Assembly (NCBI GenBank): GCA_045863395.1
Contig: BTVJ01000098.1
Span: 1 to 26,098 of the forward strand
DNA from: Myxococcales bacterium
Lineage (GTDB): Bacteria; Myxococcota_A; UBA9042; JABWCM01; BTVJ01
Direction of reading: 5' to 3'
Length of the DNA: 26,098 bases
The notes under the pieces were generated by a model. The model searched no databases, was not told where the DNA came from, and saw nothing but the letters and a program-made list of their open reading frames with translations. This document shows positions 1 to 21,457 of this stretch, in pieces (the first letter of the stretch is position 1; every line of letters begins with the position of its first letter). Made by a program: the position numbers and the translations under genes.

Positions 1-179
1 GCGTCGGCCAGCTCTGCCCGCGCCACCGCGACGGCCTCGTCGCCCCGGTGGAGGTTGCGGCGCGCTGCCTCGATCGCGGCTCCGAGTCCGGCCCATGCGA
101 CCGCGCTCGCCGGGGCCGCGGCGACCTCAGACGCTGCCTTTGCGACCCAGTCGTGATGGGTGGTGCGCTTGTCGTTCAT
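1..179 (-). CDS. N-terminal part of a hypothetical protein truncated by the window edge (MNDKRTTHHDWVAKAASEVAAAPASAVAWAGLGAAIEAARRNLHRGDEAVAVARAELAD...)
   Basis: Manually translated and absent from the ORF track. ATG at 179-177, with AGGAGG at 190-185 five nt upstream. The frame is open to the edge with GC-rich third positions, on the same strand as the upstream operon. Confidence 0.7.
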   Translation of the reverse strand, partial: MNDKRTTHHDWVAKAASEVAAAPASAVAWAGLGAAIEAARRNLHRGDEAVAVARAELAD

Positions 180-360
180 GCGAGCCTCCTGCTGCCCCGC
201 CGTGGGGGCCCTGACGCCAGGCATCCGCCTGCGACGCCCCGCCGCCCCGCCTGGCCGCGATCCTTCCGCGCTGCCACCAGCCGCACCGCATCCCGGGGAG
301 AGCCGCGTCGCGCCCCATTCTGACACGACCACGTCTTGGCGCCCACTCCTGGCGCCCCCC

Positions 361-1770
361 TCAGGGACGCAGCCGCTGGAACTTGCCGCGTTTGTCGTCG
401 ACCGGGAAGGGGGTCGCCGGTGGGGACTCGTCCGGGTCGTAGCCGCGCCCCAAGCCGGCGGCGAAGTCGCTGAAGGGGTCTACCTGGGCCTCCGCCAGGG
501 AGAGGCAGCCGATGTTCATGAGGCTCCTGACCTCCCAGGTGGCGGCCTGGCGGATGTTGTAGAGGTCGTCGGAGCCCGCCAGGTGGTAGAACTCGTGGGC
601 GAACATCTTCTCCAGCCGGGGAGCCTCCTCGGGGGTGAGCTCCTCGGGTGGCGTGAAGAGGACCGTGTAGTCGTAGTCCGGGCGGTTCGTGGCGTAGGAG
701 CGGCCCTGCCAGGGGACGTAGAAGAGGAAGGAGACCGACGTCGCGCCGTGGACGTCCATGGCGGACTGCCAGATGGCTCGGAGGGTGTCGGCGCCCGGGT
801 CCAGGAGGGGGTCTGCGGCGCGGAGCGCTCGGGCGATGTCCTCCTCGGCGGTCTCCACGGCGAGTCTGGGGGCGTAGCCCGCTGTGACGATCAGGCCGAT
901 CTCCACCGCGTCCTGGGTCGGGATCAGATCCATGGAGAGGCAGTTCTCCTCGAAGGTGCGGGCGCGCTTCACGACCCAGCCGAGGGCCGCCGTCGTGCGG
1001 TCCAGCACGTAGGCGCGCTCGCCCGGCTGGTGGACGCCCGTGTTGACGTCCACGAAGACGCCGTAGACCTGGTGGCGTCCGTCGAGGCCCAGCGTCGAGC
1101 CCACATAGGTGAACACCGAGCCGCGGTCGCGGAGGTTGCGCTCGTGTGAGATGGGCAGCACCCGGTCGCAGGGGATGCTGGGCGGGGCTGGCCGCGTCTT
1201 GACCCATGCGTCCGAGTGGGCCGGCTCGCCGCAGGCCGCCGGCGGGGGGCGGACGATGGTGACGCCGTCGGATCGCCGGTGGAGGAGGGCTGCGAGGGCG
1301 GCGATCAGCAGGAGGGCTGCCAGCGCGCCGGGCCACCGGAAGGCGCCGGGCGTCGCCGCCGGGCCGGCTCGCCTCGTGGGGCCGCCGCCGGGGGGCGAGG
1401 AGCCACCGCGGATCGGTCTGGTTGCGCCGCCCGCCGCTCCGCCACCTGTCGCTCCTCCTCCTGCCGCTCCTCCCGCCGCACCGCCACCCGCCGCACCGCC
1501 ACCCGTCGCACCGCCACCCGCCGCACCGCCACCCGCCGCACCACCTCCCGCCGCACCACCTCCCGCGGCGCCGCCCCCAGCACGCCCCCCAGCCCCACCC
1601 CCGGGCGACGGCACCGCCCCCGTGCGCTCCAGCGCGTACTGCCCCAGCATGGCCCGCGCGTCCGGCACCCCGCCCGGCGCGGCCCCGCACGGGCACCCAC
1701 CGGACTCAGGGAGCGCCGCCCCGCAGACCTCGCAGGTCCCAGCCCCAGGAGTGTCCGACTCAGGCGCCAT
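361..1770 (-). CDS. Membrane-anchored zinc metallopeptidase-like protein: N-terminal Cys zinc-ribbon, Gly/Ala linker, single TM helix, C-terminal HExxH domain resembling M6/immune inhibitor A
   Basis: 469 aa. CEVC...CPC at the N-terminus, TM helix WPGALAALLLIAALAALL, and motif AHEFYHLAGSDDLY (HExxHxxGxxD; HEFYH at 597-583) followed by SLMN, a Met-turn-like element. The start lies 3 nt after the upstream stop. Confidence 0.75.
   Translation of the reverse strand: MAPESDTPGAGTCEVCGAALPESGGCPCGAAPGGVPDARAMLGQYALERTGAVPSPGGGAGGRAGGGAAGGGAAGGGAAGGGAAGGGATGGGAAGGGAAGGAAGGGATGGGAAGGATRPIRGGSSPPGGGPTRRAGPAATPGAFRWPGALAALLLIAALAALLHRRSDGVTIVRPPPAACGEPAHSDAWVKTRPAPPSIPCDRVLPISHERNLRDRGSVFTYVGSTLGLDGRHQVYGVFVDVNTGVHQPGERAYVLDRTTAALGWVVKRARTFEENCLSMDLIPTQDAVEIGLIVTAGYAPRLAVETAEEDIARALRAADPLLDPGADTLRAIWQSAMDVHGATSVSFLFYVPWQGRSYATNRPDYDYTVLFTPPEELTPEEAPRLEKMFAHEFYHLAGSDDLYNIRQAATWEVRSLMNIGCLSLAEAQVDPFSDFAAGLGRGYDPDESPPATPFPVDDKRGKFQRLRP
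1475..1579. repeat. Coding tandem repeat: 7 units of 15 bp (consensus GCCGCACCGCCACCC) encoding (GGGAA)n on the minus strand
   Basis: Units start at 1475, 1490, 1505, 1520, 1535, 1550 and 1565, with degenerate copies continuing down to about 1425. Confidence 0.9.
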
Positions 1771-1773
1771 CGC

Positions 1774-2145
1774 TCACCACCCCGTCAGTGAGAGGCCCAC
1801 GTAGGCTGCCGCCGCCACCGCCAGGAGGCCGGCGCCGACGCCGGCGGCCACGTCCCGCGGGAGACCGTCCGCGCTCCGCGGGGCTCCGGCCCCCCTGCCG
1901 GTCGCTCCCCCCGCGGTCGCCGGCGCCCTCGTCGTGGCGACCACACGTTCGCCTGCTCCCGCGTCACCGCCGACCCCGCCCGCACGCGCCATCCACCGCG
2001 CGACGAGCCCCATCACGACGAAGAGGACCACCCCCACCGCCGCGCCCGCCAGCACCGGCGCCACGCGCTCCGCGGCCGCCTTCGCGAAGGATGGCACCGG
2101 GTCGCGCACGAGCAGCTCGGCGAACAGCGTCACGCCTCGCACCAT
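1774..2145 (-). CDS. Small integral membrane protein (2 TM), paralogue of 2149-2427
   Basis: 123 aa with hydrophobic segments VAPVLAGAAVGVVLFVVMGLVA and VAAGVGAGLLAVAAAAYVGLSL. There are 3-nt gaps to both neighbouring genes. Confidence 0.7.
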   Translation of the reverse strand: MVRGVTLFAELLVRDPVPSFAKAAAERVAPVLAGAAVGVVLFVVMGLVARWMARAGGVGGDAGAGERVVATTRAPATAGGATGRGAGAPRSADGLPRDVAAGVGAGLLAVAAAAYVGLSLTGW

Positions 2146-2148
2146 GGC

Positions 2149-2427
2149 CTACCCCACTCGGAAGACGAGGCCGAAGTACAGCGCCGAGGCGACCGCGATC
2201 AGCCCCGACAGCACCAGGAGCCAGCGCGCGCGGGCCTCGTCGTCGCCCTCGGTGTAGCGCCGGAAGATCGCCAGCGCCACCACGGTCCAGAGGACCCACA
2301 CGGCGAGCATGATCCCCGCCCCGGCCAGGACCGGCCAGAGGCGCTCCACGAAGAGGTCCCAGTACGCGAACCGGGGCTGGGCCATCGCGTCCGCGATCAC
2401 CGGAGCCCCAAGGACAATGCCACTCAT
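2149..2427 (-). CDS. Small integral membrane protein (92 aa, 2 TM)
   Basis: This is the C-terminal part of track ORF 2149..3246. The likely real start is ATG at 2427 (MSGIVLGAPV...), preceded by AGGAGGT overlapping the upstream TGA. TM segments are LWPVLAGAGIMLAVWVLWTVVALAIF and WLLVLSGLIAVASALYFGLVF. Confidence 0.75.
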   Translation of the reverse strand: MSGIVLGAPVIADAMAQPRFAYWDLFVERLWPVLAGAGIMLAVWVLWTVVALAIFRRYTEGDDEARARWLLVLSGLIAVASALYFGLVFRVG

Positions 2428-2432
2428 GTCGC

Positions 2433-5400
2433 TCACCTCCTGCGGAATGTGGGCTCGCCGGGATCCACGGCGAGGTCGGGGCGCGCGAAGGCGGGCGGCG
2501 ATGCCCACCCGGCCCCGGTGGAGAGGGCGAGCCCCAGGTCGTTCCAGTGGTCCGCGATCATGCGGGCCACGCCGAGGCCGCCCTCGCAGCCGTCGATGAT
2601 CAGCACACCGTGGCCGTCGTCGTCGGGCACCAGGTCCCCCACGCGCGCCGTCCCCGCCGCGCAGAGCACGGACAGGGCGGGTTGGAGCGCGACGAGGGCG
2701 CCCCAGAGGCCGACGGCAAAGGCGTGCGCCTCGTCGAGGCTCCAGGCGCCTCCGGTCACCAGCACGGCGTCCGTCGCGAAGACCGGGTCGAGCGGCAGCC
2801 GTGCGGCGAGCGCGCCGTCCTCGTGGAGCCGCCGTGCCACCAGAGACCCATCCGGGTGGTGGTAGGCGACGCCCCGGGGGCGGACGCGGACTCGCACGGT
2901 CCCTCGCCGGAACTCGAGCGTCGGGCGCCCCGCATAGGACTGCTCCAGCGGCGCTCCCAGGGCGGCCTCCAGCAGGTCGAAGGTACGCACCGGCAACGAG
3001 AAGCCCGCCCCGGCGCCGCGGGCGTCCTCGCCGAAGACCTCCCACGCCGCTCGCGTGCGGGCCGCCCCGTCTCGCCCGACGCGCCAGCAGAGCGGAGACA
3101 CGCCGTCGGTGCGGGCCCAGACCGCGCCGGGGAACGCCTGGAACAGATAGGTCGACGCGTCGCAGACGTATCGGGGCTCGACCCCGTCGGCGTCCAGCAC
3201 GCGCACGACCTCCATGTCGCCGGCGAGGGTGGGGGTCTCGGTGCACGGCAGGTGAGCCCCCGTCTGGCGCGGCGCGAGGCGGCGCGGTGGACTCCAGACC
3301 AGCCCGCCCTCCACCAGAGAGTACCCCCCGTGACTGCTCGCGATGTCTCCGAGCGCCTCGTCGGTCCGGGTGATCGCCTCGTCGTAGAGGTCCGCGCGAA
3401 ACGCCGAGAACGCATCCGCGTCAGGGCTCCACTGGTCCAGGATCAGGCGCGCCCACCGCTCGTGGGCGACGGGCAGGTGGGGGCTCGGCTCCAGCGGCCA
3501 CCGGGTCGCGAGCGCCAGCACCTCCACCAGCAGCCCCCCCAGAGTCTCCGCCTCACGGTCGGCGGTCCCGCCCGCTGCTCGCGGCAAGAGCGCGCCACGC
3601 TCAGCCGAGACTCCAAACGCGGCCGGGACTGCGCCGGACATGGCTCCACCGATGACTCCCAGCTCCCACTCCGCGTGGTCCACGAACACCACCGCGTCCC
3701 CGCGGCGGTATGGACCCTCCACGTTGGCGTTGAGCAGCGACAGCGCCCGGCGGCACCCGGGCAGCAGCGCGTCGCGGACGATGACGACGTGGGCGCCCGT
3801 CGGGTCGGGCCGCAGCATGGGCCAGCGCTTCGGGTCCAGCGCCAGGGGGGCGCGGCGCACCGTGGGCCACCACGCGTCACGTTGAAGCACGGACACGGGG
3901 ATTCCGGCCTGCCGGCAGGCGTCCAACACAGCAAACAGGGTCGGCGCGCCCACCTCCGTGCGGCACTCGGGGAGCAGGACCAGGTCGAGGTTGGCGGCGA
4001 CGGGGACTGCGTGGGCCGCCCTCAGGTCGGAGGCTGCAAGCTCCACGTGGTCAGCGGCCGTGGGCATGATTGCCTCGATCCACTCTCTGTCCCCGAGAGA
4101 GGGGACCGCGCTCGTCCCGAGCCAGACCGTGGGGGAGAGAGGCGACTCGGCCGACGACAGCACGACCTGAAAGGCGCGCAGGGTCTCGCGGAGCTGGGCC
4201 CGCTCCAGCTCCTCGAAGAGGTCCAGGTCCAGGACCGCGACCAGATTCACCTCGAGGAGGCGGCGGTCGCCGGCGGCCAGCGCTCCGCCCAGGGTGGAGA
4301 CTCCCATGACCGCGATGTCGGAGCCGCAGTCGGCCCCGACGGTGGGCCCCCCCTCGGCGAGCCCGGCCTCCTCCATCACGTCCTTGAAGGCGTCGACCTC
4401 GGAGGTCACCGAGCGGCGCAGGCTCAGCGAGTCTCCCCGGCAGGACGGGATGATGATCAGACACCGCGTTCGCGCGGACCCCTCGCCGTCCCCCTCGCCG
4501 GCCGTGGAGAGCAGCGCGTTGTGCAGCGCGACCCACCGGACGATGGTCGCCTTGCCGCACGCCGCCGGCCCATGCAGCACCTGGCACCGCCGCAGGGGGC
4601 GCGTGGCCTGCTCATTGCCCGGGAGCCGGCGGGCCGCCTCGTGGCTGAAGGGCAGGGGGATTGCCCCACTCTCGACGAAGAGCTCCGGACGCCAGTGTCG
4701 CAGCAGGCGCTCGATGAACGGCCGCGCCCAAGGCTCCCGGTGGACGCTCCCCGCTTCAGCGGCCAGCGTCGGACGCCGCACAGGGACGTCCAGCTCCAGG
4801 TAGAGCCCCGCAAACAAGGGGCCCGTCGCTGGCGACCCGACCCCGGAGACCGCCCCACGCAGCAGCGGCTGCCCGTAGGGGGCCGGGACGGTCCAGCCCT
4901 GCTTCGCGAGCACCTCGAGGACGTGGTCCTCTCGCCGCTCCTCGACGGATGGCGCAACCTCGCTCCCCGCCGCCCAGCACGGGGCGGAGTCCATGGCGAA
5001 GGCGGCCACCACGTCCAGCACGAACAGGAGCCCGGCGGCGAGCAGGGGCGCCGCGACGAAGGGGTCGGGGCGACCGGCGGCGTAGACACCCACCGCCACC
5101 ACCGCCAGGCCCGCGACCACCGCCACCACCGCGATTCCGCTGCGCCCCGGCGCCAGCAGGCGGTGGTGATCCAGCGCGCCCAGTGATCGCGCCCCTCCTG
5201 TCGCCGCCAGGGCCTCGCGGCTCATGCCGTGGTGGGTCAGCGTGTCCGCCTCGACTCCATGGCTGGCGCGCCCGGCGAAGGCCACCACGAGCCGGACGAC
5301 CGTCAACGCCGCGATCACCACCGCCACCGCCATGGCGCGTGACGTGGTGGGCGTCGGGGTGACTCCGAGGAGCGCGAGGAGCGGGTCCACGAAGGGGACT

Positions 5401-5690
5401 CCCGCGTCCAGCCACCACAGGGCCGCGGCGCCGGCGAGCCCCAGCAGGCCGCTGGTCACCGCCGCCGCCAGGAGGAACGGGCCTTGGTGGCGGGCCTGGA
5501 TGATCGTGGCGGTGGCGAGGTCCTCCTGGCTCCACTCGTCGGTCTCCTCGGGGAGGCGCCCATTCCCCGGAAGGGCGGCAGCGGCGCGGCCCCCCCGGCG
5601 GCGCGCACCCCCCTGGAGCCACCACACGACTCCGCACGGAACCACCGCCACCAGGACGGCCAACGCCGCGATGATGCCGAGCTCAACCAC
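2433..5690 (-). CDS. Multi-pass membrane protein fused to a degenerate SF2 helicase of the MrfA/YprA/SftH/Hrq1 type, with a C-terminal DUF1998-like region; probably an inactive pseudo-helicase
   Basis: 1085 aa, GTG start with GGAGGT RBS, and about 5 N-terminal TM helices. Helicase-like motifs occur in the correct order: GPAACGKA (4571-4548), LIIIPS (Ia), VAVLDLD (II, about 4241-4221) and LGTSA (III). AFPGAVW and IIDGCEGGLG (about 2600-2571) resemble the MrfA C-terminal region. Confidence 0.65.
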   Translation of the reverse strand: MVELGIIAALAVLVAVVPCGVVWWLQGGARRRGGRAAAALPGNGRLPEETDEWSQEDLATATIIQARHQGPFLLAAAVTSGLLGLAGAAALWWLDAGVPFVDPLLALLGVTPTPTTSRAMAVAVVIAALTVVRLVVAFAGRASHGVEADTLTHHGMSREALAATGGARSLGALDHHRLLAPGRSGIAVVAVVAGLAVVAVGVYAAGRPDPFVAAPLLAAGLLFVLDVVAAFAMDSAPCWAAGSEVAPSVEERREDHVLEVLAKQGWTVPAPYGQPLLRGAVSGVGSPATGPLFAGLYLELDVPVRRPTLAAEAGSVHREPWARPFIERLLRHWRPELFVESGAIPLPFSHEAARRLPGNEQATRPLRRCQVLHGPAACGKATIVRWVALHNALLSTAGEGDGEGSARTRCLIIIPSCRGDSLSLRRSVTSEVDAFKDVMEEAGLAEGGPTVGADCGSDIAVMGVSTLGGALAAGDRRLLEVNLVAVLDLDLFEELERAQLRETLRAFQVVLSSAESPLSPTVWLGTSAVPSLGDREWIEAIMPTAADHVELAASDLRAAHAVPVAANLDLVLLPECRTEVGAPTLFAVLDACRQAGIPVSVLQRDAWWPTVRRAPLALDPKRWPMLRPDPTGAHVVIVRDALLPGCRRALSLLNANVEGPYRRGDAVVFVDHAEWELGVIGGAMSGAVPAAFGVSAERGALLPRAAGGTADREAETLGGLLVEVLALATRWPLEPSPHLPVAHERWARLILDQWSPDADAFSAFRADLYDEAITRTDEALGDIASSHGGYSLVEGGLVWSPPRRLAPRQTGAHLPCTETPTLAGDMEVVRVLDADGVEPRYVCDASTYLFQAFPGAVWARTDGVSPLCWRVGRDGAARTRAAWEVFGEDARGAGAGFSLPVRTFDLLEAALGAPLEQSYAGRPTLEFRRGTVRVRVRPRGVAYHHPDGSLVARRLHEDGALAARLPLDPVFATDAVLVTGGAWSLDEAHAFAVGLWGALVALQPALSVLCAAGTARVGDLVPDDDGHGVLIIDGCEGGLGVARMIADHWNDLGLALSTGAGWASPPAFARPDLAVDPGEPTFRRR

Positions 5691-7092
5691 CGGCCACCTC
5701 CGGGCGGACGTCCAAGCAGCGCAGCTCCGAACGGTAGGGGCCGCACTCCAGGATGAGGCGGTCGCCGGTGGGGGTCGCGCGAAGCACTGGGGTGGGCGCC
5801 GAGGTGCCCCCCGCGCGAGCCCCCGTCGCGGCCTGCCACGCCTTCAGCGCCGTCGAGCACTCGCCGGCCAGCGTGGCGCGGGCGCGGGCCGTCACCCGGG
5901 AGAGGTTGTCGCGGGACGCGCGGAGCGCCTGTCTGAGGTCTGGTGGGGCGCTCCACGAGACGGTCTCCACGACCACGGGAGGCCGCCGGCGTCGCGTGAC
6001 CTCGTCGCGGTAGCCTCGCACGGCCCGGACGATGGCGTACACCCCGAGGACCGCGACACAGCCGCCCAGAATGGCCAGAGCGACGACGGAGGCTGCGCCG
6101 CCGGAGCTCCACGCGGAGAGTCTGCCGTAGGCGAGGCTCCAGGCGAGGGCGGCGGCGCCGAGCGCCAGAGCCCAACCCGTGGTCATGAGAGCCCCCCCTC
6201 CCGCCCGCTCGACGGTGGCGGACTCCGGTGGGGGAGCCGTCGGACGCTCCCTCCGTGTCCGCACGGGGACCGAGATGCGCTCCAGGGGGGTGTCGACGCT
6301 CTCCTCTCCAGCGCGCAGCCCCTCGATACGCTCCCGCTCCTCGTCACAGATGCGGTGGAGGCTGGCCGCGATGGAGGTCGCCTCGGCTTGGCGGGCGCCC
6401 TCGTCCGTGGACAGCGCCACGGCGATGACGCCCTGACCGCCCGGAGCGCCCCGGAGCAGGGTGCCGAGGCTCTTCGCCCCCTCCGGGGTCGCGAGCGCGG
6501 GCGCCAGCGTGCGGAGCCAGTCGGCCAGGCGGCGGGACCCGGCGCTCCGAAGCTCCGGCAGCACGGCGCCCAGCGCGGTGACCCGCACGCCGGGCACGTC
6601 GGGCGCCGCGGGAGCGTCCGCCGGGACGTGCGCGCTCACGCGGATGGCCCAGACCTCCGGTGCGTCGAGCCCCGAGACGACGGAGCGGGCGCTGGCGTCA
6701 TCTCGGAGCAGCCGCGCCACGGGCTCCGGGAGCGTCACGTCCGCGTCCGAGACGATGACCAGGCGCAGCCCCCTGGCGAAGGCGTCGTCGCTCCCCGGGA
6801 CGCGGAGCCCCAGGAGCCCGACAGCGTCACGGAGGGCGCCCACGAGCGCAGAGGCGTCGGTCACCGCGCAGGTCTGCGAGCGGAGGACGCGGAGCCACCG
6901 GTCGCGCCGAAGCGCCCAGGGCGCCCGCCAGCGGGCCGTGACCAGCTCGACGGCCGCCTGGGCAGCCCCGCCCACGCACCACAGGACGACCAGGCTGCCG
7001 ACGCGGCCGCCTTCGGTCGCGAAGCAGCCCCGCGTCGCCGGGTGCAGCACCCAGGGGGGCCACGTCACCTCGATGATCGTCTCTCCGCTCAC
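5683..7092 (-). CDS. Hypothetical membrane protein (about 469 aa) with a central two-TM hairpin
   Basis: Track ORF 5683..7116 starts at a TTG inside the tubulin gene; GTG at 7092, after a G-rich RBS-like run, is more plausible. TM segments are GWALALGAAALAWSLAY and VVALAILGGCVAVLGVYAIV. The end overlaps the next gene's start by 8 nt. Confidence 0.7.
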   Translation of the reverse strand: MSGETIIEVTWPPWVLHPATRGCFATEGGRVGSLVVLWCVGGAAQAAVELVTARWRAPWALRRDRWLRVLRSQTCAVTDASALVGALRDAVGLLGLRVPGSDDAFARGLRLVIVSDADVTLPEPVARLLRDDASARSVVSGLDAPEVWAIRVSAHVPADAPAAPDVPGVRVTALGAVLPELRSAGSRRLADWLRTLAPALATPEGAKSLGTLLRGAPGGQGVIAVALSTDEGARQAEATSIAASLHRICDEERERIEGLRAGEESVDTPLERISVPVRTRRERPTAPPPESATVERAGGGALMTTGWALALGAAALAWSLAYGRLSAWSSGGAASVVALAILGGCVAVLGVYAIVRAVRGYRDEVTRRRRPPVVVETVSWSAPPDLRQALRASRDNLSRVTARARATLAGECSTALKAWQAATGARAGGTSAPTPVLRATPTGDRLILECGPYRSELRCLDVRPEVAGG

Positions 7093-7102
7093 GGCCCCCC
7101 CC

Positions 7103-10100
7103 TCAGTCGAGGACAAACTCCAGCAGGGCCGCGTAGCGCTCGATGTCCGCCACGTAGTGCCCCGGGTAGTGCGCGCGCGTCCCCGGGATGGGGTCGTGCT
7201 TCGTGGCCATGCGCTGCTCGAGCTCGGCCTTGACGCGCGCCTTCAAGGCCGCGCGGGCCCCGGCGTCCAGGCTGCTCCGCATGACGTGGGCACCGACGGT
7301 CTCCGGCTGCAGCGCGAGCAGGGCGTCGTCCAGCGCGGCCACCGCCGACAGGAACAGCGTGAGGGCGCTCCGGGCCTCCGGGGACAGGCCGAACCGAGGG
7401 TCCCCCTCCAGCGCTGCCGTGCTGCGCCGCGCCTGCCTCACGATGGCGAGCAGGTCCGTCGCGCTGGTCGCGAGGCGGGGCTCCTCCCGCTGGAGCACCT
7501 CCACGTCGCCGGGGGCCCACTCCACCTCCAGGGCCCAGCGCGAGAGGTGGGCGGACTCCCGCACGTAGCGCAGGCCGAGCACCGCATCCCGGCCCTTTCC
7601 GGGCACGGTGATCGCGCGGCTCAGCAGGAGCAGCGCCAGGAGCGCGGCGCGGGTCTCCGCGGCCTCCACCTCACGCCCCGTGTGCAGCTCTGTCGCCTGC
7701 TCCGCCAGGCCGAGGAAGGGCAGGAGCGGGCGGCGGCGCACCGTCAGCCCATCGGGAGCCACGGACAGCTCGGTGAACTGCCGGGCCGTGAACAGGTCGG
7801 GGCCCGCCTCGCCGGTCTGGAGCTCGTTGAGCAGCACGTCCGCGTCGTTGGCGATCTCGTCGAACCACTCGGGGATCAGGGCCATGTTGCGGCGGTAGTA
7901 GATGAACACGTCCGGCGACAGCAGCGGGACGTGGCCCCGCACCACGCTCAGGCGACCGGCGCCCTTGGACTGGAGCAGCGCGATGAACTGGTTGCGGTCG
8001 TCGGCGAGGCGGCGCTGGTCGTCGGTGTCCAGGTTGGCGGTGGGCGGAGTCCCGATGGCGATGGCGGCAAAGGCCCCGGACTGCGGGCGGTCCGGGGCGC
8101 CGGCCACGGGGCTCACCCGGGCGAGGGGGCTCGACAGCAGGTCGTGGCAGCGCGCCACGACGGAGCCGACCAGGGCCTCGGCCCGGCCGTTGTGGAGCGT
8201 CGCGCGGGTGGTGCGGCCGCTGCGGACCCGGTCGTAGTAGGAGGAGAGGACGTCGACGCCGGACGCGGAGCCGGCCACGGCCTGCTGAGACAGCACGCTG
8301 AGCTCGCCGTAGTCCGCCTGCAGCGTGATGGCGCGCTCCAGGGTCAGCCTGGCCCGCAGGTACGCCTCCAGCTCGCCCTCGAGGGCCGCCTTGAGGCTGT
8401 GAGACGAGCGCCGCACGAGGGCCGCAGCGAGCTCGCGGCTGGACAGCCCCGCCACCTGGCTGCGGACCGCGGCCATGAAGCCGACGATGTGCGCGCCCAG
8501 GGTGTCCAGGGTCGCTCCCCCGTCGGGGGCGCCGCCCCCCAGGCCGCCGAACTGGCGCTTGATGTCCAGGTCGGCGACCTGGTCGAGGTAGTACCAGTGC
8601 CAGAGGCGCTGGTGCCCGTTGTGGTCGGTCAGCACCTCGTGATCGTGGAGGAACCCGCGACTCGCGGGCACGAGCAGCGCGTGGGACTCCTTGCGGAGCT
8701 CCTGGGCGGCTGCGTGCGCTGCCTCCGAGTAGCTCTCGTAGCCCGCGATGCGCACCAGCGCCGCCTGCCGGACGGCCGACGCCAGGCCGGAGACGACCAC
8801 CCACTGGAGCGCCTCGAGGGCGGGCTGCGCGGTCATCGCGTGCAGCTCGCCAACCAGCTTGTTGATCTCGCCTTGGACCTCCTCATCGGTGTTGTCCGCC
8901 GTCAGCTTTGACAGCCACTTCTCGAGGCCGGTCTTCGGGCGTTGGATCTCGTTGATTCGATCGGTCCCGGCTCGGACGTGCTCGTCAGCGCCCTTCAGCG
9001 CCGCCTCGAACTCTGCCCTCGCAGACTCCGCGCGGCTCGCCAGACGGGCGAGCGCGCCCGTGCCGAACAGCCCCGGGAAGCGGTCCGGGTGCAGCGCGCG
9101 AAGAGACTGCTCCACGTCCGAGGAGGGACCGTGACTCCAGTGGGGGAGCGCCGCAAACCACTCGTCCGGTGTCGCCGGCAGCGGGCTCGTGGCGTTCAGG
9201 TCGCAGGCCGTGATGGCGTAGAGGAGGCAGAGCTCGGCGACGGTCGGGAGGTCGGCGCCTGCGCTGGCGCTGCTCGCGGCCAGGTCCGACTCGGCCCCGA
9301 CCAGCGAGGTCCAGAAGGACGCAGACGACAGCTCGCGGGCAAACTCGGCGACCAGCGCGTCAGCCTCCCTCAGCGCCCCCGCCGCCTGGTTCTTGCGCTT
9401 GTTGACGACGGAGCTGAAGGTCGCCTTCTGCGCGTACAGGCCCTCCGCGAGGTGGGCGTCGAGACCACGGCTGGCACTCGTCAAGACCTCCTTCATCTTG
9501 GCGACGAGCTGCCCCATGAGGGTGCGGGTCGGGTGTGCCAGCGAGAGCGTCCGGGCCACCGACCCCCAGATGGACAGCTCGTTGGTGCCCGTCCCCAGGG
9601 CGCCGCGCATCTCCCGCGCCTCTGAGCAGCCGAGCTCCACCACGCTCGCGAGGAAGCACTTGCCGATGAGGGCCCTGCGCACGGCCGGAGCCGTCCGCGG
9701 GGCGGTGGCGGCCCTGGCCCGCTCCGCGTCGAGCCGGGTCAGCTCGGCCCGGCCTTGCTCGTCCGACGCGAGGCGCGCGAACTCCAGGTGGAGCGGCGAC
9801 GTGCGCTCCAGCACGTCCCCCACCACGAGCGTCGAGAGGTAGCGCACCAGCTCTTCTCGCGGCAGGTGGACCACGGCCGAGCCGTGGGCCGCGTAGCTCG
9901 CCGTGCTACCGGGGAGCCCGCTCTTCGGGCCGTAGACCTGGCTGAGCTGGAGCTGATAGTTGGCATGGTCGGAGGCGCTCGGCTGGTGGACTCCCTGGTA
10001 GGTAGCTGCAAACAGGGCCTCTGCGGCAGACTGATAGGCCTGGACTCCGCTCTGGCGACCGGTCTGCTCATAGAGGTAGACGTAGCTGAACGGCGCGCGG

Positions 10101-10984
10101 GAGATGTGTGTGACGGTGGACGAAGCCCACAGGGGGAGCTGCCCCTTGGCCGGGTCCGCGCCGGCCGCCTCGAAGCGCTCGAGGTAGGTCTTCGTGGCGG
10201 TCTGGCGGCCGAGCTTCTGGAAGTGCTCCAGCTCCATGAGCGCGGCGCAGCAGTTGGCCTCCACCCGCGTCGCGTTGACGCCATACTGGGCGGCGGTCAG
10301 CGCCGTGTCCAGGAAGGCGTGGCCCACGAAGTCGTGGCACAGCGGGTCGTTGCCGATGAGCTGGCGGAGCGCGGCGGCCACGTGGAGCGCGCCACCGGAG
10401 CCGGTCCCGCCAGCGAGCCCGAACACCACATGGACCTCGTAGCCGGCCTGCGGGTCCGCCTCCGAGACGGTGGCTCTGCGCTTGAGGAAGGTCTCCAGCC
10501 TGTCCATGAGGCCCTGGTGGTCCAGCGCGTGGTGGACTGCCATGCGCGTCACGAGTCGCCGCTGGCCGGCGCCCGGGAGCTGGAGCATGGTGACCGGTGC
10601 ACCGACGACGAGCCTCCCGTCGCTCACCGTGGTCTGGCGCGGAAGCCACGCCTCGAGCTGGTCGCGGACCCGGCTCGGTGGACCGGCCAGCGTGGCGTCG
10701 TACCACCGCTTGGCGCGCTCGATGTCGAGCGTGAACCGCTCATCGAGGTCCAGCCCGCTGCTGCTGAGCTCACCGCCGTCGGTGTCGATGGCCAGGTAGA
10801 GGTAGCGGGCGCCGACGCCGGCGTGGCCGGCAGTCGCGACGCCCGCCGCGTGCGCCAGCACCCTCTTGAATGACTGGATGGTCTTCACCCCGGAGCCTCC
10901 CACGCCGACCACCAGGAAGGTCCGCTGGCTGTAGGGGTTCACGAGGACGCGGCCTGCCTCTTCCATCGCGTGAGTGTGCGGCAT
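7103..10984 (-). CDS. Divergent tubulin/FtsZ-like GTPase (Tubulin_2 / FtsZl1-type) with a long alpha-helical C-terminal extension
   Basis: 1293 aa. Contains T1-like FLVVGVGGSG, YLAIDTD, T3-like GAGQRR, the tubulin signature loop FGLAGGTGSGG (AGGTGSGG at 10414-10391) and NCCAALMEL. AGGAGGT RBS lies at 11001-10995. Confidence 0.88.
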   Translation of the reverse strand: MPHTHAMEEAGRVLVNPYSQRTFLVVGVGGSGVKTIQSFKRVLAHAAGVATAGHAGVGARYLYLAIDTDGGELSSSGLDLDERFTLDIERAKRWYDATLAGPPSRVRDQLEAWLPRQTTVSDGRLVVGAPVTMLQLPGAGQRRLVTRMAVHHALDHQGLMDRLETFLKRRATVSEADPQAGYEVHVVFGLAGGTGSGGALHVAAALRQLIGNDPLCHDFVGHAFLDTALTAAQYGVNATRVEANCCAALMELEHFQKLGRQTATKTYLERFEAAGADPAKGQLPLWASSTVTHISRAPFSYVYLYEQTGRQSGVQAYQSAAEALFAATYQGVHQPSASDHANYQLQLSQVYGPKSGLPGSTASYAAHGSAVVHLPREELVRYLSTLVVGDVLERTSPLHLEFARLASDEQGRAELTRLDAERARAATAPRTAPAVRRALIGKCFLASVVELGCSEAREMRGALGTGTNELSIWGSVARTLSLAHPTRTLMGQLVAKMKEVLTSASRGLDAHLAEGLYAQKATFSSVVNKRKNQAAGALREADALVAEFARELSSASFWTSLVGAESDLAASSASAGADLPTVAELCLLYAITACDLNATSPLPATPDEWFAALPHWSHGPSSDVEQSLRALHPDRFPGLFGTGALARLASRAESARAEFEAALKGADEHVRAGTDRINEIQRPKTGLEKWLSKLTADNTDEEVQGEINKLVGELHAMTAQPALEALQWVVVSGLASAVRQAALVRIAGYESYSEAAHAAAQELRKESHALLVPASRGFLHDHEVLTDHNGHQRLWHWYYLDQVADLDIKRQFGGLGGGAPDGGATLDTLGAHIVGFMAAVRSQVAGLSSRELAAALVRRSSHSLKAALEGELEAYLRARLTLERAITLQADYGELSVLSQQAVAGSASGVDVLSSYYDRVRSGRTTRATLHNGRAEALVGSVVARCHDLLSSPLARVSPVAGAPDRPQSGAFAAIAIGTPPTANLDTDDQRRLADDRNQFIALLQSKGAGRLSVVRGHVPLLSPDVFIYYRRNMALIPEWFDEIANDADVLLNELQTGEAGPDLFTARQFTELSVAPDGLTVRRRPLLPFLGLAEQATELHTGREVEAAETRAALLALLLLSRAITVPGKGRDAVLGLRYVRESAHLSRWALEVEWAPGDVEVLQREEPRLATSATDLLAIVRQARRSTAALEGDPRFGLSPEARSALTLFLSAVAALDDALLALQPETVGAHVMRSSLDAGARAALKARVKAELEQRMATKHDPIPGTRAHYPGHYVADIERYAALLEFVLD

Positions 10985-11008: not shown

Positions 11009-13708
11009 TCAGGAGCAGAGGCCCGCAAGGCGGGACCAGGAGTAGATGAGCAGCGCGAGGCACCCCAGGATGAAGAGCCAGAGGTGCCACCGGATCGGGT
11101 GCAGCAGCGGACCAATCAGGTCGGCGAACGTCTCCCGCGCGGACCGCTTCTTCGCGCCCAGGCGGAGCTCGGCCCGCATGGGGTGGACGTCGCTGCCAGA
11201 GGCGGCCATCAGCCCCTCGGGGACTGACCGGACCGACTGGATCGGCAGCTTGCGCTTGGTGCGGAAGCCATCCTTGAAGTGGAACGTGATGTCTCCTCGG
11301 TAGTGCTTCGACGCGGGCTTCACGTAGAGGCCATACCTCACCGAGCCCGTGAACCACCGGGTCAGCATCCAGTTTCTCGCGCGCGCGCCGGGCGCATAGT
11401 CACCCTCCAGCGGGACGGGGCGGGTCTTGCCCTTCTCGTCGACGGTGGCGATCACGGAGATGTCTCGCAGCTCGCCGGGGAACCCGTAGGTGTTCACGAT
11501 GAGGAGCAGCGCGGCGGCCCCGAGCAGCAGGAAGAGGAGAGTCGCGACCACGGCCGCGCCGCGGCAGGTCCACCAGCCGTCCGACAGGAGGGGCTTGTGG
11601 AAGTCGAAGCGCTGCGAGCCGACGGGCACGGCGAAGCGGCGCGTGGGGAAGACCGTGACCACCGCCTCGTGGACTCCGTCCAGGCTGCACAGGGAGCTGT
11701 CCGTGCGGAGAGTGGCCAGCGAGACGGTGCCGCCCGCCGGGATCGTGAGGATCGGGGGCGCCAGCTCCACGAGGGCGTCCCCGGGGCTCGCCTCCGCGAC
11801 GAGGGTCACCTGCTCGGCGTCTCCGTCGGTCTTGACGTCCACGCGGGAGCCCACGAGGCAGATGGGGCACGCCGCCCCGTTGACCAGGGACAGGTGTGCC
11901 ACGTTTCCGGCGGCGGGGCAGGCGTCCCAGGGCTGGGCCTCAGCCCGGGCGCCGATGGCCGTCAGCTTGTCGAAGGGGTTGGTGAAGGTCAGGTGCAGGG
12001 TGGATCCCGGCGGTCCCCCGGGTGCGGGAATCGGCAGATCCACCGTAGACATGGCCGGGTCCAGCGCGCAGCCGTCGGCGTCCGGCTGGAACTTCACCGC
12101 GAGGTCGACGACCCAGGCGCCGCCCGCGTCCTGGCGGGGCGGCCCGTCCTGGGCGATGGCGAAGCACGCGGCGTGGGGGCCGTCCGGCAGGGGCACCACC
12201 ACGGACTTGTCCGGGCAGGCCTCCTCCAGCGGGGCGGTGACGCGGACGACCCGCGCGCTCTCCTCACAGCACCACGAGAAGGCGGCCTTCAGATCGAGTG
12301 GCTCCTTCAGCTTGCACGCGGCGCAGGAGAAGTCGCGTGCCGGGGAGAGGTCGACGGTCTGGCCCTGGCGTGTGGGGTGGTCCGCCACCACGCGGGCGGA
12401 CCAGTCTCCGCGCTTGCAGCGCCAGGGGGCGCTCGGGGCGTCGAAGACTCCAGAGGCTCCCACGCGGCCGAGCGCGAGAGTGGTCTCGGGCTGGCCCGTG
12501 CGCGCGTCGGTCACCACCACCCGGGCATTGCGCTCGTCGCAGCGCCCGGTCAGGTGCGTGCGGAAGCACAGCTCGGCGCCGACCGCGATGGGGTCGGGGT
12601 TTGCGGGGTCGGCGGGCCACAGCGCGGCGGGCGGACAGCCTCCGACCCCCAGGAGGAGGCTGCGGTCCCGAGCGTCGGACTGCTGCACGGGCACGAAGAG
12701 GGCCCGCCACACGGCCTCGGGCGGAGACACCTCCACGCGGAGCTGCGCCGCGGTCGAGGTGACGTGGTGGATGGCGTAGTGATATTCCTTTGAGGACTTC
12801 GAATACTGGTATGTGCTCTTCAGGGTCTCCTTCGCGGTGACGGACCCGGCGGTGTCCGGCGCTCCCTTCGGGTCGACCCCATGCACCGTCACCGTGAAGG
12901 CGCGGTCAGCCAGCACGAGCAGGCGCGTCTCTGCGCTGGTCATGCAGCCCTGGAGCGTGGGCACTTCGGGAGTCGCCTCTACGGCCTCGCTGTAGGCCGC
13001 CCCGACGCGGAGCGCCCCCGCGAAGGCCGACAGCAGTGTCTCGCCCGATGCCGTCCCAGTCGCGAGGGGGTCGCTCGTGCCCAGGGCGACGGGGAAGGAG
13101 ACGATGGTCCCGGCCGAGACGGCCGACTGCACCTGCTGGAAGCTCTGCTGGGACCCGGCACCGAGGGCGATGAACACGGACGGGATGGGCGAGGAGCGAC
13201 CGGTTGAGAGAGCCTGCAGCTCGGTAGCGTAGTCGCTCCCCGCGGCGCAGTCTCCATCTCCGAGGACGACCACGACCTGGGGTCGTTTGGGAGACTTGGC
13301 GTGGGCTGCGTCCATGGCCGGCTTCATGACCCGGAACCCGGCCCGGCAGTCAGTCCCCTCGCTGTATGCAGCGATAGGCCGGAGCGCCTTGAGATCCGGG
13401 GTCTTTCCGAGGGGAATGACGACCGAGGCGTCCGCGTGCTTGGCGACGAGGACCCGGTCGTCCGGCCCGAGGAGCGCCCCCAGGAGCAGGGTCGACAGCA
13501 CGGTCACCCGGGACGGGTCGTTTGCCTGCATGGACCCGGACACGTCGAGGAGGACGAAGTAGTCGACGCCGCGGGCGGGCGGGAGCTTCTTGGGGGTGCT
13601 GGCCGCGGCCTGGGCCGAGGCGAGGGCGAGGAGCGCTCCGATCACGAGGACGGCGCGCGTGCGATGTGCCCTTGCGTCGGCGATCATGGTGGCGAACGTG
13701 CTGGCCAT
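11009..13708 (-). CDS. Secreted, membrane-anchored von Willebrand factor A (vWA) domain protein
   Basis: 899 aa. Signal-peptide-like N-terminus (AVLVIGALLALASAQA), MIDAS DxSxS motif FVLLDVSGSM (13546-13529), then EGTD and VVVLGDG. A Cys-rich beta-strand stalk leads to TM helix AAVVATLLFLLLGAAALLLIV and a second C-terminal TM helix LWLFILGCLALLIYSW. Confidence 0.85.
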   Translation of the reverse strand: MASTFATMIADARAHRTRAVLVIGALLALASAQAAASTPKKLPPARGVDYFVLLDVSGSMQANDPSRVTVLSTLLLGALLGPDDRVLVAKHADASVVIPLGKTPDLKALRPIAAYSEGTDCRAGFRVMKPAMDAAHAKSPKRPQVVVVLGDGDCAAGSDYATELQALSTGRSSPIPSVFIALGAGSQQSFQQVQSAVSAGTIVSFPVALGTSDPLATGTASGETLLSAFAGALRVGAAYSEAVEATPEVPTLQGCMTSAETRLLVLADRAFTVTVHGVDPKGAPDTAGSVTAKETLKSTYQYSKSSKEYHYAIHHVTSTAAQLRVEVSPPEAVWRALFVPVQQSDARDRSLLLGVGGCPPAALWPADPANPDPIAVGAELCFRTHLTGRCDERNARVVVTDARTGQPETTLALGRVGASGVFDAPSAPWRCKRGDWSARVVADHPTRQGQTVDLSPARDFSCAACKLKEPLDLKAAFSWCCEESARVVRVTAPLEEACPDKSVVVPLPDGPHAACFAIAQDGPPRQDAGGAWVVDLAVKFQPDADGCALDPAMSTVDLPIPAPGGPPGSTLHLTFTNPFDKLTAIGARAEAQPWDACPAAGNVAHLSLVNGAACPICLVGSRVDVKTDGDAEQVTLVAEASPGDALVELAPPILTIPAGGTVSLATLRTDSSLCSLDGVHEAVVTVFPTRRFAVPVGSQRFDFHKPLLSDGWWTCRGAAVVATLLFLLLGAAALLLIVNTYGFPGELRDISVIATVDEKGKTRPVPLEGDYAPGARARNWMLTRWFTGSVRYGLYVKPASKHYRGDITFHFKDGFRTKRKLPIQSVRSVPEGLMAASGSDVHPMRAELRLGAKKRSARETFADLIGPLLHPIRWHLWLFILGCLALLIYSWSRLAGLCS

Positions 13709-17014: not shown

Positions 17015-17316
17015 GGTCTGTGGTCCTCCTCTGCGTTCGTCCCCAATGATGGACGGCGAGTGCCGGGAACGCCAGCTCTCTCACGCGCAGTCATGTCGGT
17101 TCTCGACCTGGGCGGCCTGCCCGCACCGTGAGGGCTTCGCGAATCTTCCTGTCAGAGCCTTCCGCCGAGAGGTTCTCCGGCCCTGTGGGCTGGACGTGGG
17201 CATGGCCCTGTCCAGCGGTGTGCGGCATGTCGCTGCACCGGGCCGGCGTCCGAGGTGGGGCCGAAGGCTTCGTGAGGTCGCCGGCGCATCGTGTTCGCAG
17301 ACGTGTGAGGGAGACC

Positions 17317-21216: not shown

Positions 21217-21457
21217 TCATCGACTCCGTCCGGTCCCCGACTCGTCTCACCTCCCCGAGACCAGTAGAGTTCGTGCGTGACATCTGCGGCGTCCTGCGAT
21301 ACGGTCCGCACTGCCAGCACCCAGGAGGGGACCGCCAGGAGGGAGACCTCAGGACCTGACCGCGGGGCCGTGTCAGATCGGGGCGGCCCGCGACTCCCCT
21401 CTCTCTGAGCCTGGAGTGAATCTCCGGGACGCGGGCACCACCTTCGGAGGACGACTC

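Follow-up and report, generated by a model that had tools for sequence, protein, structure and literature searches.

A membrane-anchored MrfA/YprA-like pseudo-helicase in a vWA-FtsZl1 tubulin operon of a Myxococcales bacterium

Why does a gene encoding membrane segments and an apparently dead helicase body lie in an operon with a tubulin-like GTPase, and what might its product do there? The gene, here gene 4 (2433..5690, minus strand), encodes a membrane-anchored MrfA/YprA-like pseudo-helicase of 1,085 aa and lies in a window of 26,098 nucleotides, the whole stretch of Myxococcales DNA that was analyzed (GenBank assembly GCA_045863395.1, contig BTVJ01000098.1). Its product is a divergent representative of a widespread family whose genes stand fourth in vWA-FtsZl1 tubulin operons. 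The layout of these operons is already published (Makarova and Koonin 2010), with no helicase noted. The role of the gene 4 protein is inferred.

Operon structure and coding evidence

The operon is read from the minus strand in the order vWA protein, FtsZl1 tubulin (PF13809), TM protein, and pseudo-helicase. This operon context had been missed by the initial annotation, which was made from the sequence alone. Gene 1 (11009..13708, minus strand) encodes a vWA protein of 899 aa with a signal-like N-terminal segment, a MIDAS motif (DVSGS, aa 55), and C-terminal TM segments; its match to PF13519 (E 1.6e-5, 25.9 bits) lies just below the cut-off of 27. Gene 2 (7103..10984, minus strand) encodes an FtsZl1/Tubulin_2 GTPase of 1,293 aa (PF13809, E 2e-31) with a GGTGSG loop at aa 192. 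Gene 3 (5683..7116, minus strand) encodes about 470 aa with one or more central hydrophobic segments, probably starting from a GTG at codon 9. Its product matched neither the third genes of related operons (E 0.043) nor tubulin (E 0.67), and its Atlas leads are weak (0.79 to MMR_HSR1 clusters); a weak similarity to tubulin is seen in the third genes of the relatives (68%, E 4.7e-5), with E < 0.01 for 11 of 31.

The gene 4 frame is intact over 1,085 codons, as had been noted without a strand, and its GTG start overlaps the stop of gene 3. GC content by codon position (0.78/0.55/0.90) is similar to that of the neighboring genes, and the frame is unbroken in long contigs from other runs. An 879-aa open reading frame on the plus strand over gene 4 has the mirror-image GC pattern typical of a shadow frame. 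Contigs from RNA libraries span parts of gene 4 as well as its junction with gene 3; an unrelated region at 14 to 16 kb is covered too, so this coverage is no proof of gene 4 expression.

Predicted fold and membrane topology

Single-sequence searches with the gene 4 protein gave no Pfam, NCBIfam, PADLOC, or PDB sequence match, and the best MZB domain score was E 0.97. The MrfA/YprA-type fold proposed in the initial annotation is nevertheless supported by a structure model and Foldseek. A full-length model built from two rows reached a pLDDT of 30.4; the confident model of the gene 4 body (pLDDT 75.8, pTM 0.82) used 33 rows of the family, on whose alignment the similarity in fold therefore leans. 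MrfA was the top Foldseek match (E 3e-13) and ranked first among 48,161 chains (Z 17.0, rmsd 5.1, 525 residues aligned). Model range 1..748 aligns to MrfA 47..730, with the end of the model, residue 1062, at MrfA 728-730, and the predicted architecture of the body is RecA1-RecA2-WH-OB-CON-MZB.

The RecA1-like domain (about aa 315-550; 4041..4748, minus strand) matches the family profile described below at E 4.2e-11. The RecA2-like domain (3621..4028, minus strand) is shortened, with four strands in the model, and gave E 0.11 on its own against the same profile. Winged-helix, OB, and connector-like regions follow with approximate borders (2751..3620, minus strand), and then an MZB/DUF1998-like region without the four-Cys site and a Pro-rich tail (2436..2750, minus strand); the MZB region matches the family at E 0.0018 and the MrfA profile at E 0.014.

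About five N-terminal TM helices had been reported, and five hydrophobic segments were indeed found within aa 4-232 (4995..5681, minus strand), at 4-22, 73-91, 114-132 (weak), 186-204, and 211-229; five occur in all four full-length rows of the clade formed by gene 4 and its orthologues. Their match to the family profile is E 0.025. Loops 1 and 3 carry 5 to 10 K/R and loops 2 and 4 carry 0 to 3 in four orthologues; loop length and K/R content point to an N-out/C-in topology, and the body is predicted to be cytoplasmic. A model of RecA1-RecA2-WH (500 aa) in complex with the tubulin domain (384 aa) scored 0.00 and carries no weight either way.

Loss of catalytic and zinc-binding residues

The catalytic positions are altered much as the initial annotation had read them. 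Walker A (GPAACGKAT, aa 374; 4545..4571, minus strand) contains GKA instead of GK[ST], motif II (aa 487; 4221..4232, minus strand) is LDLD in place of DExH, in a register with which the alignments agree, and motif III is TSAV (aa 526). The motif VI (QxxGRAGR) column holds LSLLNANV, and an alternative register from the pairwise MrfA alignment provides no motif VI counterpart either. No Gln stands at the aligned Q-motif column, in a region that aligns poorly. RecA2 appears to lack the DNA-binding motifs IVa and V, which both the multiple alignment and the family profile leave without a counterpart, the latter through a gap of 28 residues at MrfA motifs IVa-V; the RecA2 register is uncertain, however, and hhalign against MrfA alone places aa 639-678 on these motifs. 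The protein has no HExxH.

At the C terminus, the proposed likeness to DUF1998 applies to an MZB/DUF1998-like region that includes AHAF (aa 988) and IIDGCEGGLG (aa 1031), but two of the motifs cited for it belong elsewhere: AFPGAVW (aa 852) lies in the OB domain and FATDAV (aa 971) at the CON/MZB border. The CxC..GCPxC cluster is absent as described, the last Cys being at aa 1035, yet not through truncation. The chain extends about 25 residues beyond the place of the cluster, which indicates that the zinc site was replaced rather than cut off. The four-Cys site is found in none of six clade rows versus 25 of 26 canonical MrfA rows, and CxxC/CxC is absent from the last 150 aa of all six.

These losses are shared with orthologues. 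In the five compared, at 27 to 63% identity, GKA is retained in all and the Walker A Ser/Thr lost in all, and motif II reads LDLD, LDLD, LDLD, LDLH, and LDVD; none has DExH, even at 27% identity, so the decay is not strain specific. The clade orthologues share 102 invariant core positions. RecA2 is the most conserved part within the clade (26% of positions invariant, including QRDAWWPT at 3861-3884, minus strand), and within the soluble portion conservation is lowest in OB, CON, and MZB (6 to 10%). Strain variants comprise 8 synonymous and 6 nonsynonymous changes (pN/pS 0.29, P = 0.02).

The clade is rare, with five matches among 1.84 billion representatives. A four-row clade profile found it in 0 of 400 other genomes of the phylum. 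The gene 4 protein as a single sequence matched none of 60 relatives, tblastn with it located no paralogue in the genome, and two metagenome scans were likewise negative.

A family of pseudo-helicases in tubulin operons

Gene 4 was linked to a wider family only by profile-profile comparison; phmmer and an iterated family HMM missed it (E 1.3 to 3.1). A profile of four orthologues matched the tubulin-operon family, defined in the present analysis by 36 rows, at 99.3% (E 6.5e-21, 614 columns). Control profiles (one reversed and eight block-shuffled) gave E values of at least 1.8e-4 over at most 70 columns. Gene 4 fits the family in its colinear soluble-core profile, its N-terminal TM block, and its position two genes after the tubulin gene. 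The family profile itself finds YprA at E 1.4e-30. Independent decay of gene 4 from a housekeeping MrfA is rejected, as the direct profile match of its clade to MrfA is weak (E 0.011; E 0.16 with five rows) against the 6.5e-21 to the family, and an intact, canonical MrfA gene with an RNase H-fold neighbor is present on contig C59 of the same genome. That genome also holds two intact paralogous operons, which together with the normal MrfA provide built-in controls.

A related gene is present at 36 of the 58 other tubulin loci examined and is missing from 22, some of which are cut by contig ends. A scan of all species genomes yielded 12 distant tubulin loci, none with a related gene. Family-level matches occurred in 45 of 301 genomes, 10 of which had contributed no row to the family list, and all 45 are among the 72 PF13809-positive genomes; this co-occurrence comes from a model built from tubulin-linked genes, with three candidates scored per genome and kin that are not independent. 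The orthologue P0008 and the tubulin homologue P0005 have longest contigs of equal length (62,367), which suggests co-location. A plasmid search with one family member gave no match.

Erosion is widespread in the family. No member of 36 combines motifs I and II with both motif VI arginines; DExH is present in 1 and GK[ST] in 12, and 23 have no Lys at the Walker A column. Three to six hydrophobic segments precede Walker A in all 36, compared with none in the MrfA L039. The strict Cys4 pattern occurs in only 17 of the 36, and Dpd helicases are reported to have lost the Cys4 cluster too (bioRxiv 2025.09.15.676423, section 7), so this loss is not unique to gene 4. Some relatives carry the same body with a fused DUF6782 peptidase (HExxH) or a transglutaminase-like tail, and one paralogue, L038, has both the Cys cluster and HExxH. 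In a quick-version tree, the gene 4 clade sits on a long branch (2.2) beside a Cys-less family branch, with an SH-aLRT of only 85. Among the family rows examined, it is the most stripped version, with no Mg2+ ligands, zinc site, or fused protease, and thus marks the minimal needs of the proposed scaffold and a short list of invariant residues. Together, the losses shared with orthologues and family favor the initial view of a repurposed pseudo-enzyme over a pseudogene.

Comparison with known systems

Makarova and Koonin (PMC2875224) predicted that FtsZl1 tubulins drive a membrane machine; the literature searched yielded no experiments on these tubulins. Their Additional file 5 lists the vWA-FtsZl1-B5-B12 cassette (BACCAP_04121-04124, RUMLAC_01526-01529), which has the same order and similar sizes as the present operon: vWA, FtsZl1 (PF13809), a mid-sized gene, and a large membrane-associated gene. 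Gene 2 shows the FtsZl1 features of a tubulin-like N-terminal domain, a GTP loop, and a long helical tail, and the adjacent gene 1 has an intact MIDAS with signal or TM segments. Gene 4 is set beside B12 by gene order, size, and annotation only, and it has neither the Zn finger nor the fused zincin of B12. The word "helicase" does not occur in the main text or six supplements of that paper, and we found no description of a helicase in an FtsZl1 operon in the literature searched. A dead YprA helicase identity gives a structural model for what was a "hypothetical membrane protein."

Gene 4 is connected to the MrfA/YprA/SftH/Hrq1 helicases (Bacillus subtilis MrfA, PDB 6ZNP; PMC7797055) by its predicted domain order and by its best structural match, which spans the entire soluble part. 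Unlike them, it has five TM segments, GKA, LDLD, no motif VI or Cys4, and a shortened RecA2, and its neighbors are vWA and tubulin genes rather than MrfB. It resembles MrfA in fold only and is not counted as an MrfA/YprA member. The defensive YprA clades described in a 2025 survey (DISARM DrmA/B, Dpd, Druantia, ARMADA, BRIGADE, and TALON) likewise reuse the YprA fold outside repair, but are described as helicases partnered by nucleases or methylases, in contrast to the vWA and Tubulin_2 neighbors of gene 4; the main-text part of that survey mentions no tubulin, FtsZ, transmembrane, or vWA and does not include the gene 4 branch (bioRxiv 2025.09.15.676423). The GAP1-N2 systems, as treated in section 29 of Kaur et al. 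2020 (PMC7159879), also pair a tubulin-domain gene having a helical tail with a membrane vWA protein, and a regulated cytoskeleton-like assembly near the membrane is proposed there. Their core, in Firmicutes and Actinobacteria, consists of TRAFAC GTPases together with GAP1 and FNIII proteins, with no pseudo-helicase described in the passages considered; the 11 open reading frames scanned in the window gave no Pfam match to a TRAFAC GTPase or FNIII protein, and gene 3 has the weak Atlas leads to MMR_HSR1 clusters given above.

Putative role of the gene 4 protein

We consider it about an even chance (probability roughly 0.5) that the gene 4 protein is a non-catalytic membrane scaffold for the FtsZl1 tubulin-like machine. 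The exported vWA protein may use its MIDAS site to bind a surface ligand, and the TM proteins encoded by genes 3 and 4 would relay this signal inward. The hinged pseudo-helicase body would then offer a docking surface, with the invariant QRDAWWPT/RD..L..R of RecA2 as a candidate patch, on which the FtsZl1 GTPase would be recruited to the membrane or nucleated there. In relatives with a fused HExxH-peptidase or transglutaminase-like domain, the body may position that domain; the gene 4 lineage, with no fused output, would act through its partners only. The whole machine might serve in membrane remodeling or in a cell-contact or conflict response.

The initial annotation had left a choice between a scaffold and a nucleic-acid sensor, and the apparent absence of motifs IVa/V from RecA2 favors the former. 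A sensor would be a motor-less clamp, in which the RecA pair and the OB-CON-MZB canopy close on phage or conjugative single-stranded DNA at the membrane and trigger the tubulin-like GTPase for immunity or uptake. We regard this as possible but tentative. The model does predict the whole MrfA canopy, R418, R425, and R426 near motif Ia and R604 and R612 near motif IV are invariant in all five orthologues, DISARM, Dpd, Druantia, and ARMADA center on YprA relatives (bioRxiv 2025.09.15.676423), and tubulin and vWA genes occur together in the predicted conflict systems of PMC7159879, section 29. On the other hand, the core is net acidic (67 K+R versus 92 D+E), the canopy domains are the least conserved, PADLOC gave no match at E ≤ 1 for seven window proteins, and a Pfam scan of 11 open reading frames in the window found no nuclease or methylase. 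A bolder version, which we hold to be doubtful, would make the protein a repair helicase turned motor-less receptor that clamps single-stranded DNA or a phosphate-bearing signal at the inner membrane face and triggers GTP-driven assembly of a tubulin-like filament; the FtsZl1 operon would then be a cytoskeletal system for immunity or uptake that nucleic acids set off.

The invariant Lys380, with the arginines at motifs Ia and IV, suggests that the protein may have kept the capacity to bind a phosphate-bearing ligand. A retained P-loop could thus hold ATP or another such ligand without splitting it and report to the tubulin partner, which we judge rather improbable. P375, G379, and K380 are invariant in all five orthologues, the nearest family branch mostly retains GK[ST], and MrfA bound AMPPNP without Mg2+ through its Walker A Lys (PMC7797055); however, the hydroxyl of Walker A, the initial Asp of motif II, and motif VI have disappeared together, and most family members have dispensed with the Lys. 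An active atypical ATPase or helicase relying on other residues is very unlikely: relative L091 retains GKS and DELH and gene 4 keeps Lys380, but the clade has neither the catalytic Glu nor the motif VI arginines. A decaying pseudogene or strain-specific loss, to which the rarity and long branch of the clade might point, is the least probable reading and largely refuted by the orthologue alignment and strain-variant data, along with the intact frame and coding-type GC3. The scaffold reading fits these observations best.

Genes downstream of gene 4

Three genes on the minus strand follow the pseudo-helicase. The first, starting 5 nt after gene 4, encodes a two-TM protein of 92 aa (2149..2427), and the second a two-TM protein of 123 aa (1774..2145). 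The third (361..1770) encodes 469 aa, with no family or PDB match and an HExxH domain that matched neither the fused zincins (E 0.24) nor the HExxH gene after L068. Its product comprises a Cys ribbon, a Gly-rich linker, one TM segment, and the HExxH (HEFYH) domain, and the gene, closely spaced with those before it, is a candidate member of the system.

Window gene and its orthologues

The pseudo-helicase gene (positions 2433 to 5690, minus strand; 1085 amino acids) is a real feature, with GC contents by codon position (0.78/0.55/0.90) that agree with those of neighboring genes; a long plus-strand ORF overlapping 2433 to 5690 was rejected as a shadow frame by codon-position GC. Each motif quoted in the initial annotation was found in the translated sequence, as were five hydrophobic segments ahead of the soluble part, matching the "about five" N-terminal transmembrane (TM) helices described there. 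As a single sequence, the protein had no match in Pfam, NCBIfam, PADLOC, or the PDB; in the ESM Atlas, unnamed clusters of about 1000 amino acids came first (0.95 to 0.96), followed by clusters with PF09369 MZB and DEAD domains (0.92 to 0.95).

Word-based and exhaustive sequence searches, the latter covering 1.84 billion representatives and returning five matches, yielded the orthologues P0003 (63% identity), P0008 (39%), P0010 (37%), and P0011 (30%) and a fifth relative, the 137-amino-acid fragment P0012. In the five rows of this window clade that cover the core (the window protein, P0003, P0008, P0010, and P0011), Walker A is always GKA and motif II never contains DE, so that close orthologues do not retain DExH; the five hydrophobic segments recur in all four full-length rows, and the zinc-binding C-terminal Cys cluster reported missing from the window protein is absent from all six. 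The core has 102 invariant positions, densest in RecA2 (26%). In contigs of four other runs, the gene differs at 14 single bases; 8 of the changes are synonymous, and 6 are nonsynonymous (pN/pS of 0.29, binomial P of 0.02; the numbers are small, and one run is possibly the source of the window DNA). Long near-identical contigs from other runs contain no gaps in the gene. Given the shared motif losses, the invariant core, and the strain-variant pattern, the catalytic residues were, judging from sequence, lost long ago, and selection appears to act on the gene.

Operon context and published systems

Gaps to the same-strand upstream genes do not exceed 24 bases. These encode a vWA protein (PF13519, E = 1.6e-5; MIDAS intact), a Tubulin_2 protein (PF13809, E = 2e-31), and, directly upstream, a 470-amino-acid membrane protein whose stop codon overlaps the window gene start. 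Downstream lie two small TM genes and a minus-strand gene (361 to 1770) for a protein with an N-terminal Cys ribbon, a Gly/Ala repeat linker, one TM segment, and an HExxH (HEFYH) domain, for which no family or structure match was found. Elsewhere in the window, a 789-amino-acid ORF divergent from the operon (13993 to 16362, plus strand) had no Pfam match above the cutoff; we take its acidic motif near residue 170 to resemble an RNase H-fold start and the remainder to be helical-repeat-like. A 1333-amino-acid exported-looking protein (17128 to 21129, plus strand) has a Peptidase_C39-like domain, Dictyostelium-type Cys repeats, and what is presumably a C-terminal sorting-like tail, and a CorA-like membrane protein (E = 1.3e-5) is encoded at 21416 to 23377 (plus strand).

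FtsZl1-vWA operons were defined in PMC2875224, the accessible parts of which describe a vWA-FtsZl1-B5-B12 cassette in two genomes and name no helicase in text or supplements; B12 is a membrane zincin that carries a Zn finger, whereas the window clade lacks a C-terminal Cys cluster. Tubulin-vWA loci with TRAFAC GTPases are regarded as conflict systems (PMC7159879, in part). A survey of YprA clades (bioRxiv 2025.09.15.676423) reports loss of the zinc site (Cys4) in Dpd, similar to the window clade; the portion of its text available does not mention tubulin, vWA, or TM forms, and its supplements could bear on novelty. The available portions of PMC9871819 and bioRxiv 10.64898/2026.10.19.760177 add nothing further on the window gene, and full-text searches of the open literature, as distinct from subscription papers, turned up no account of a membrane pseudo-helicase in tubulin operons.

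A pseudo-helicase family in tubulin operons

PF13809 matches occur in 72 of 301 genomes of the phylum. A family HMM, started from nine fourth genes and then iterated while excluding canonical MrfA as well as P0003 and the window protein, found a related gene in 36 of 58 further tubulin loci, which include a second operon of this genome; the other 22 had none by this HMM, some of them stopping at contig edges. The HMM also detects canonical MrfA (E = 1.8e-29), and a 32-row family profile (L042, L066, L082, and L085 excluded) had Bacillus subtilis YprA as its top PDB match (E = 1.4e-30). The window-clade profile matched the family at 99.3% (E = 6.5e-21, 614 colinear columns; E = 2.3e-15 with a two-row version) and MrfA directly at only E = 0.011, while nine reversed or shuffled controls gave short stretches with E values of at least 1.8e-4. 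At a cutoff of E < 1e-30, which we set at the gap above MrfA-level matches, 45 of 301 whole genomes were positive, ten of them without a row in the family list, and all 45 were tubulin positive, a count that is partly circular, with three candidates scored per genome and nonindependent kin. Because a related gene is missing from all twelve of the distant tubulin loci taken from other phyla, the pseudo-helicase gene is a marker of one FtsZl1 operon subtype. The window gene is a highly stripped version of gene 4 in a catalogued operon type and does not belong to the active MrfA family.

All 36 family members have 3 to 6 hydrophobic segments ahead of Walker A; GK[ST] is kept in 12, DExH in 1, and both motif VI arginines in none. 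The strict Cys4 pattern occurs in 17 of 36 (two rows are incomplete, and a few have looser clusters) and in 25 of 26 canonical MrfA rows, which were picked by motifs and for which only the Cys4 count is an independent control. In several members, the C terminus holds a DUF6782 peptidase domain or a transglutaminase-like one. In a quick tree of 47 rows, the window clade (support of 100, long branch) groups with twelve rows, all lacking the Cys4 pattern (SH-aLRT of 85), which is only suggestive of kinship. One member (L091:12500-16144, plus strand) has both GKS and DELH, and its close kin L092 and L093 have DDLH, a natural pair for comparing any residual ATPase activity. In genome G259 the gene is in two pieces, a RecA part and an MZB-bearing part (L066:6590-10039, minus strand), similar to the DrmA/DrmB split, and apparently also in G181 (C72:31582-33530); either a frameshift or a genuine split may account for the two pieces. 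In several loci the next gene after the pseudo-helicase encodes a Ser/Thr kinase (L073:11990-14032, L076:6755-7879, and L089:12349-13521), and in others it is lipoprotein-like.

Predicted structure and possible function

A model of residues 315 to 1062, built from 37 rows (four clade and 33 family; L045, L066, and L085 excluded, no canonical MrfA), had a pLDDT of 75.8 and a pTM of 0.82. The proposed resemblance to MrfA-type helicases was borne out by the predicted structure: Foldseek placed four MrfA chains on top (E = 3e-13 to 4.5e-8, TM-score of about 0.45). VIA-align likewise put MrfA first, with Z = 17.2 within the set of leading Foldseek chains (a tie, as Brr2 chains lay within 1 of this value) and Z = 17.0 in a comparison with 48,161 representatives (525 residues aligned, model 1 to 748 to chain 47 to 730), where Lhr came second (15.8). 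RecA2 of SF2 helicases has six strands, with motifs IVa and V at the edge; the model has four. Where MrfA has motifs IVa to V, the family profile is 28 residues short, and a multiple alignment places the window clade likewise, whereas a pairwise profile alignment to MrfA takes residues 639 to 678 as motifs IVa and V. We prefer the former register because the strands at residues 635 to 639 and 666 to 671, together with the PWE-like turn after them, correspond to the final two core strands of MrfA. Loop charges suggest an N-out, C-in topology with the body in the cytoplasm.

Since the equivalents of the MrfA catalytic residues T83, D185/E186, and R384 (PMC7797055, the source, in part, of the MrfA anatomy used here) are all altered, ATP hydrolysis by the window protein is predicted to be very unlikely. 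Of the sensor or scaffold role at the membrane initially proposed, the scaffold part fares better: part of the RecA2 DNA surface is apparently gone, the core is net acidic, and RecA2 bears a new invariant patch, so we give roughly even odds (about 0.5) to a noncatalytic membrane scaffold that would link the FtsZl1 GTPase with a vWA receptor facing outward. The same surface loss and acidity make a motor-less DNA clamp rather unlikely, but we retain it because the arginines at motifs Ia and IV are invariant. The invariant P-loop lysine likewise keeps a nucleotide-binding switch under consideration, as a still more doubtful reading. An active enzyme is poorly supported and highly improbable, and a pseudogene, equally poorly supported, is the least credible of all.

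Other helicase-family genes in this genome

Canonical MrfA is encoded on contig C59, adjoining an RNase H-fold gene. The second operon (contig C32; L038:1948-17980, minus strand) has the order vWA-like, tubulin, TM, pseudo-helicase; its fourth gene keeps the Cys4 cluster, is fused to an HExxH peptidase (DUF6782), and has an SNF2 helicase gene after it. Three further MZB/DUF1998 genes beside MrfA (C44:98-3184, C41 near 9300-9536, and C157 near 5832-6053) are possibly defense-type YprA relatives.
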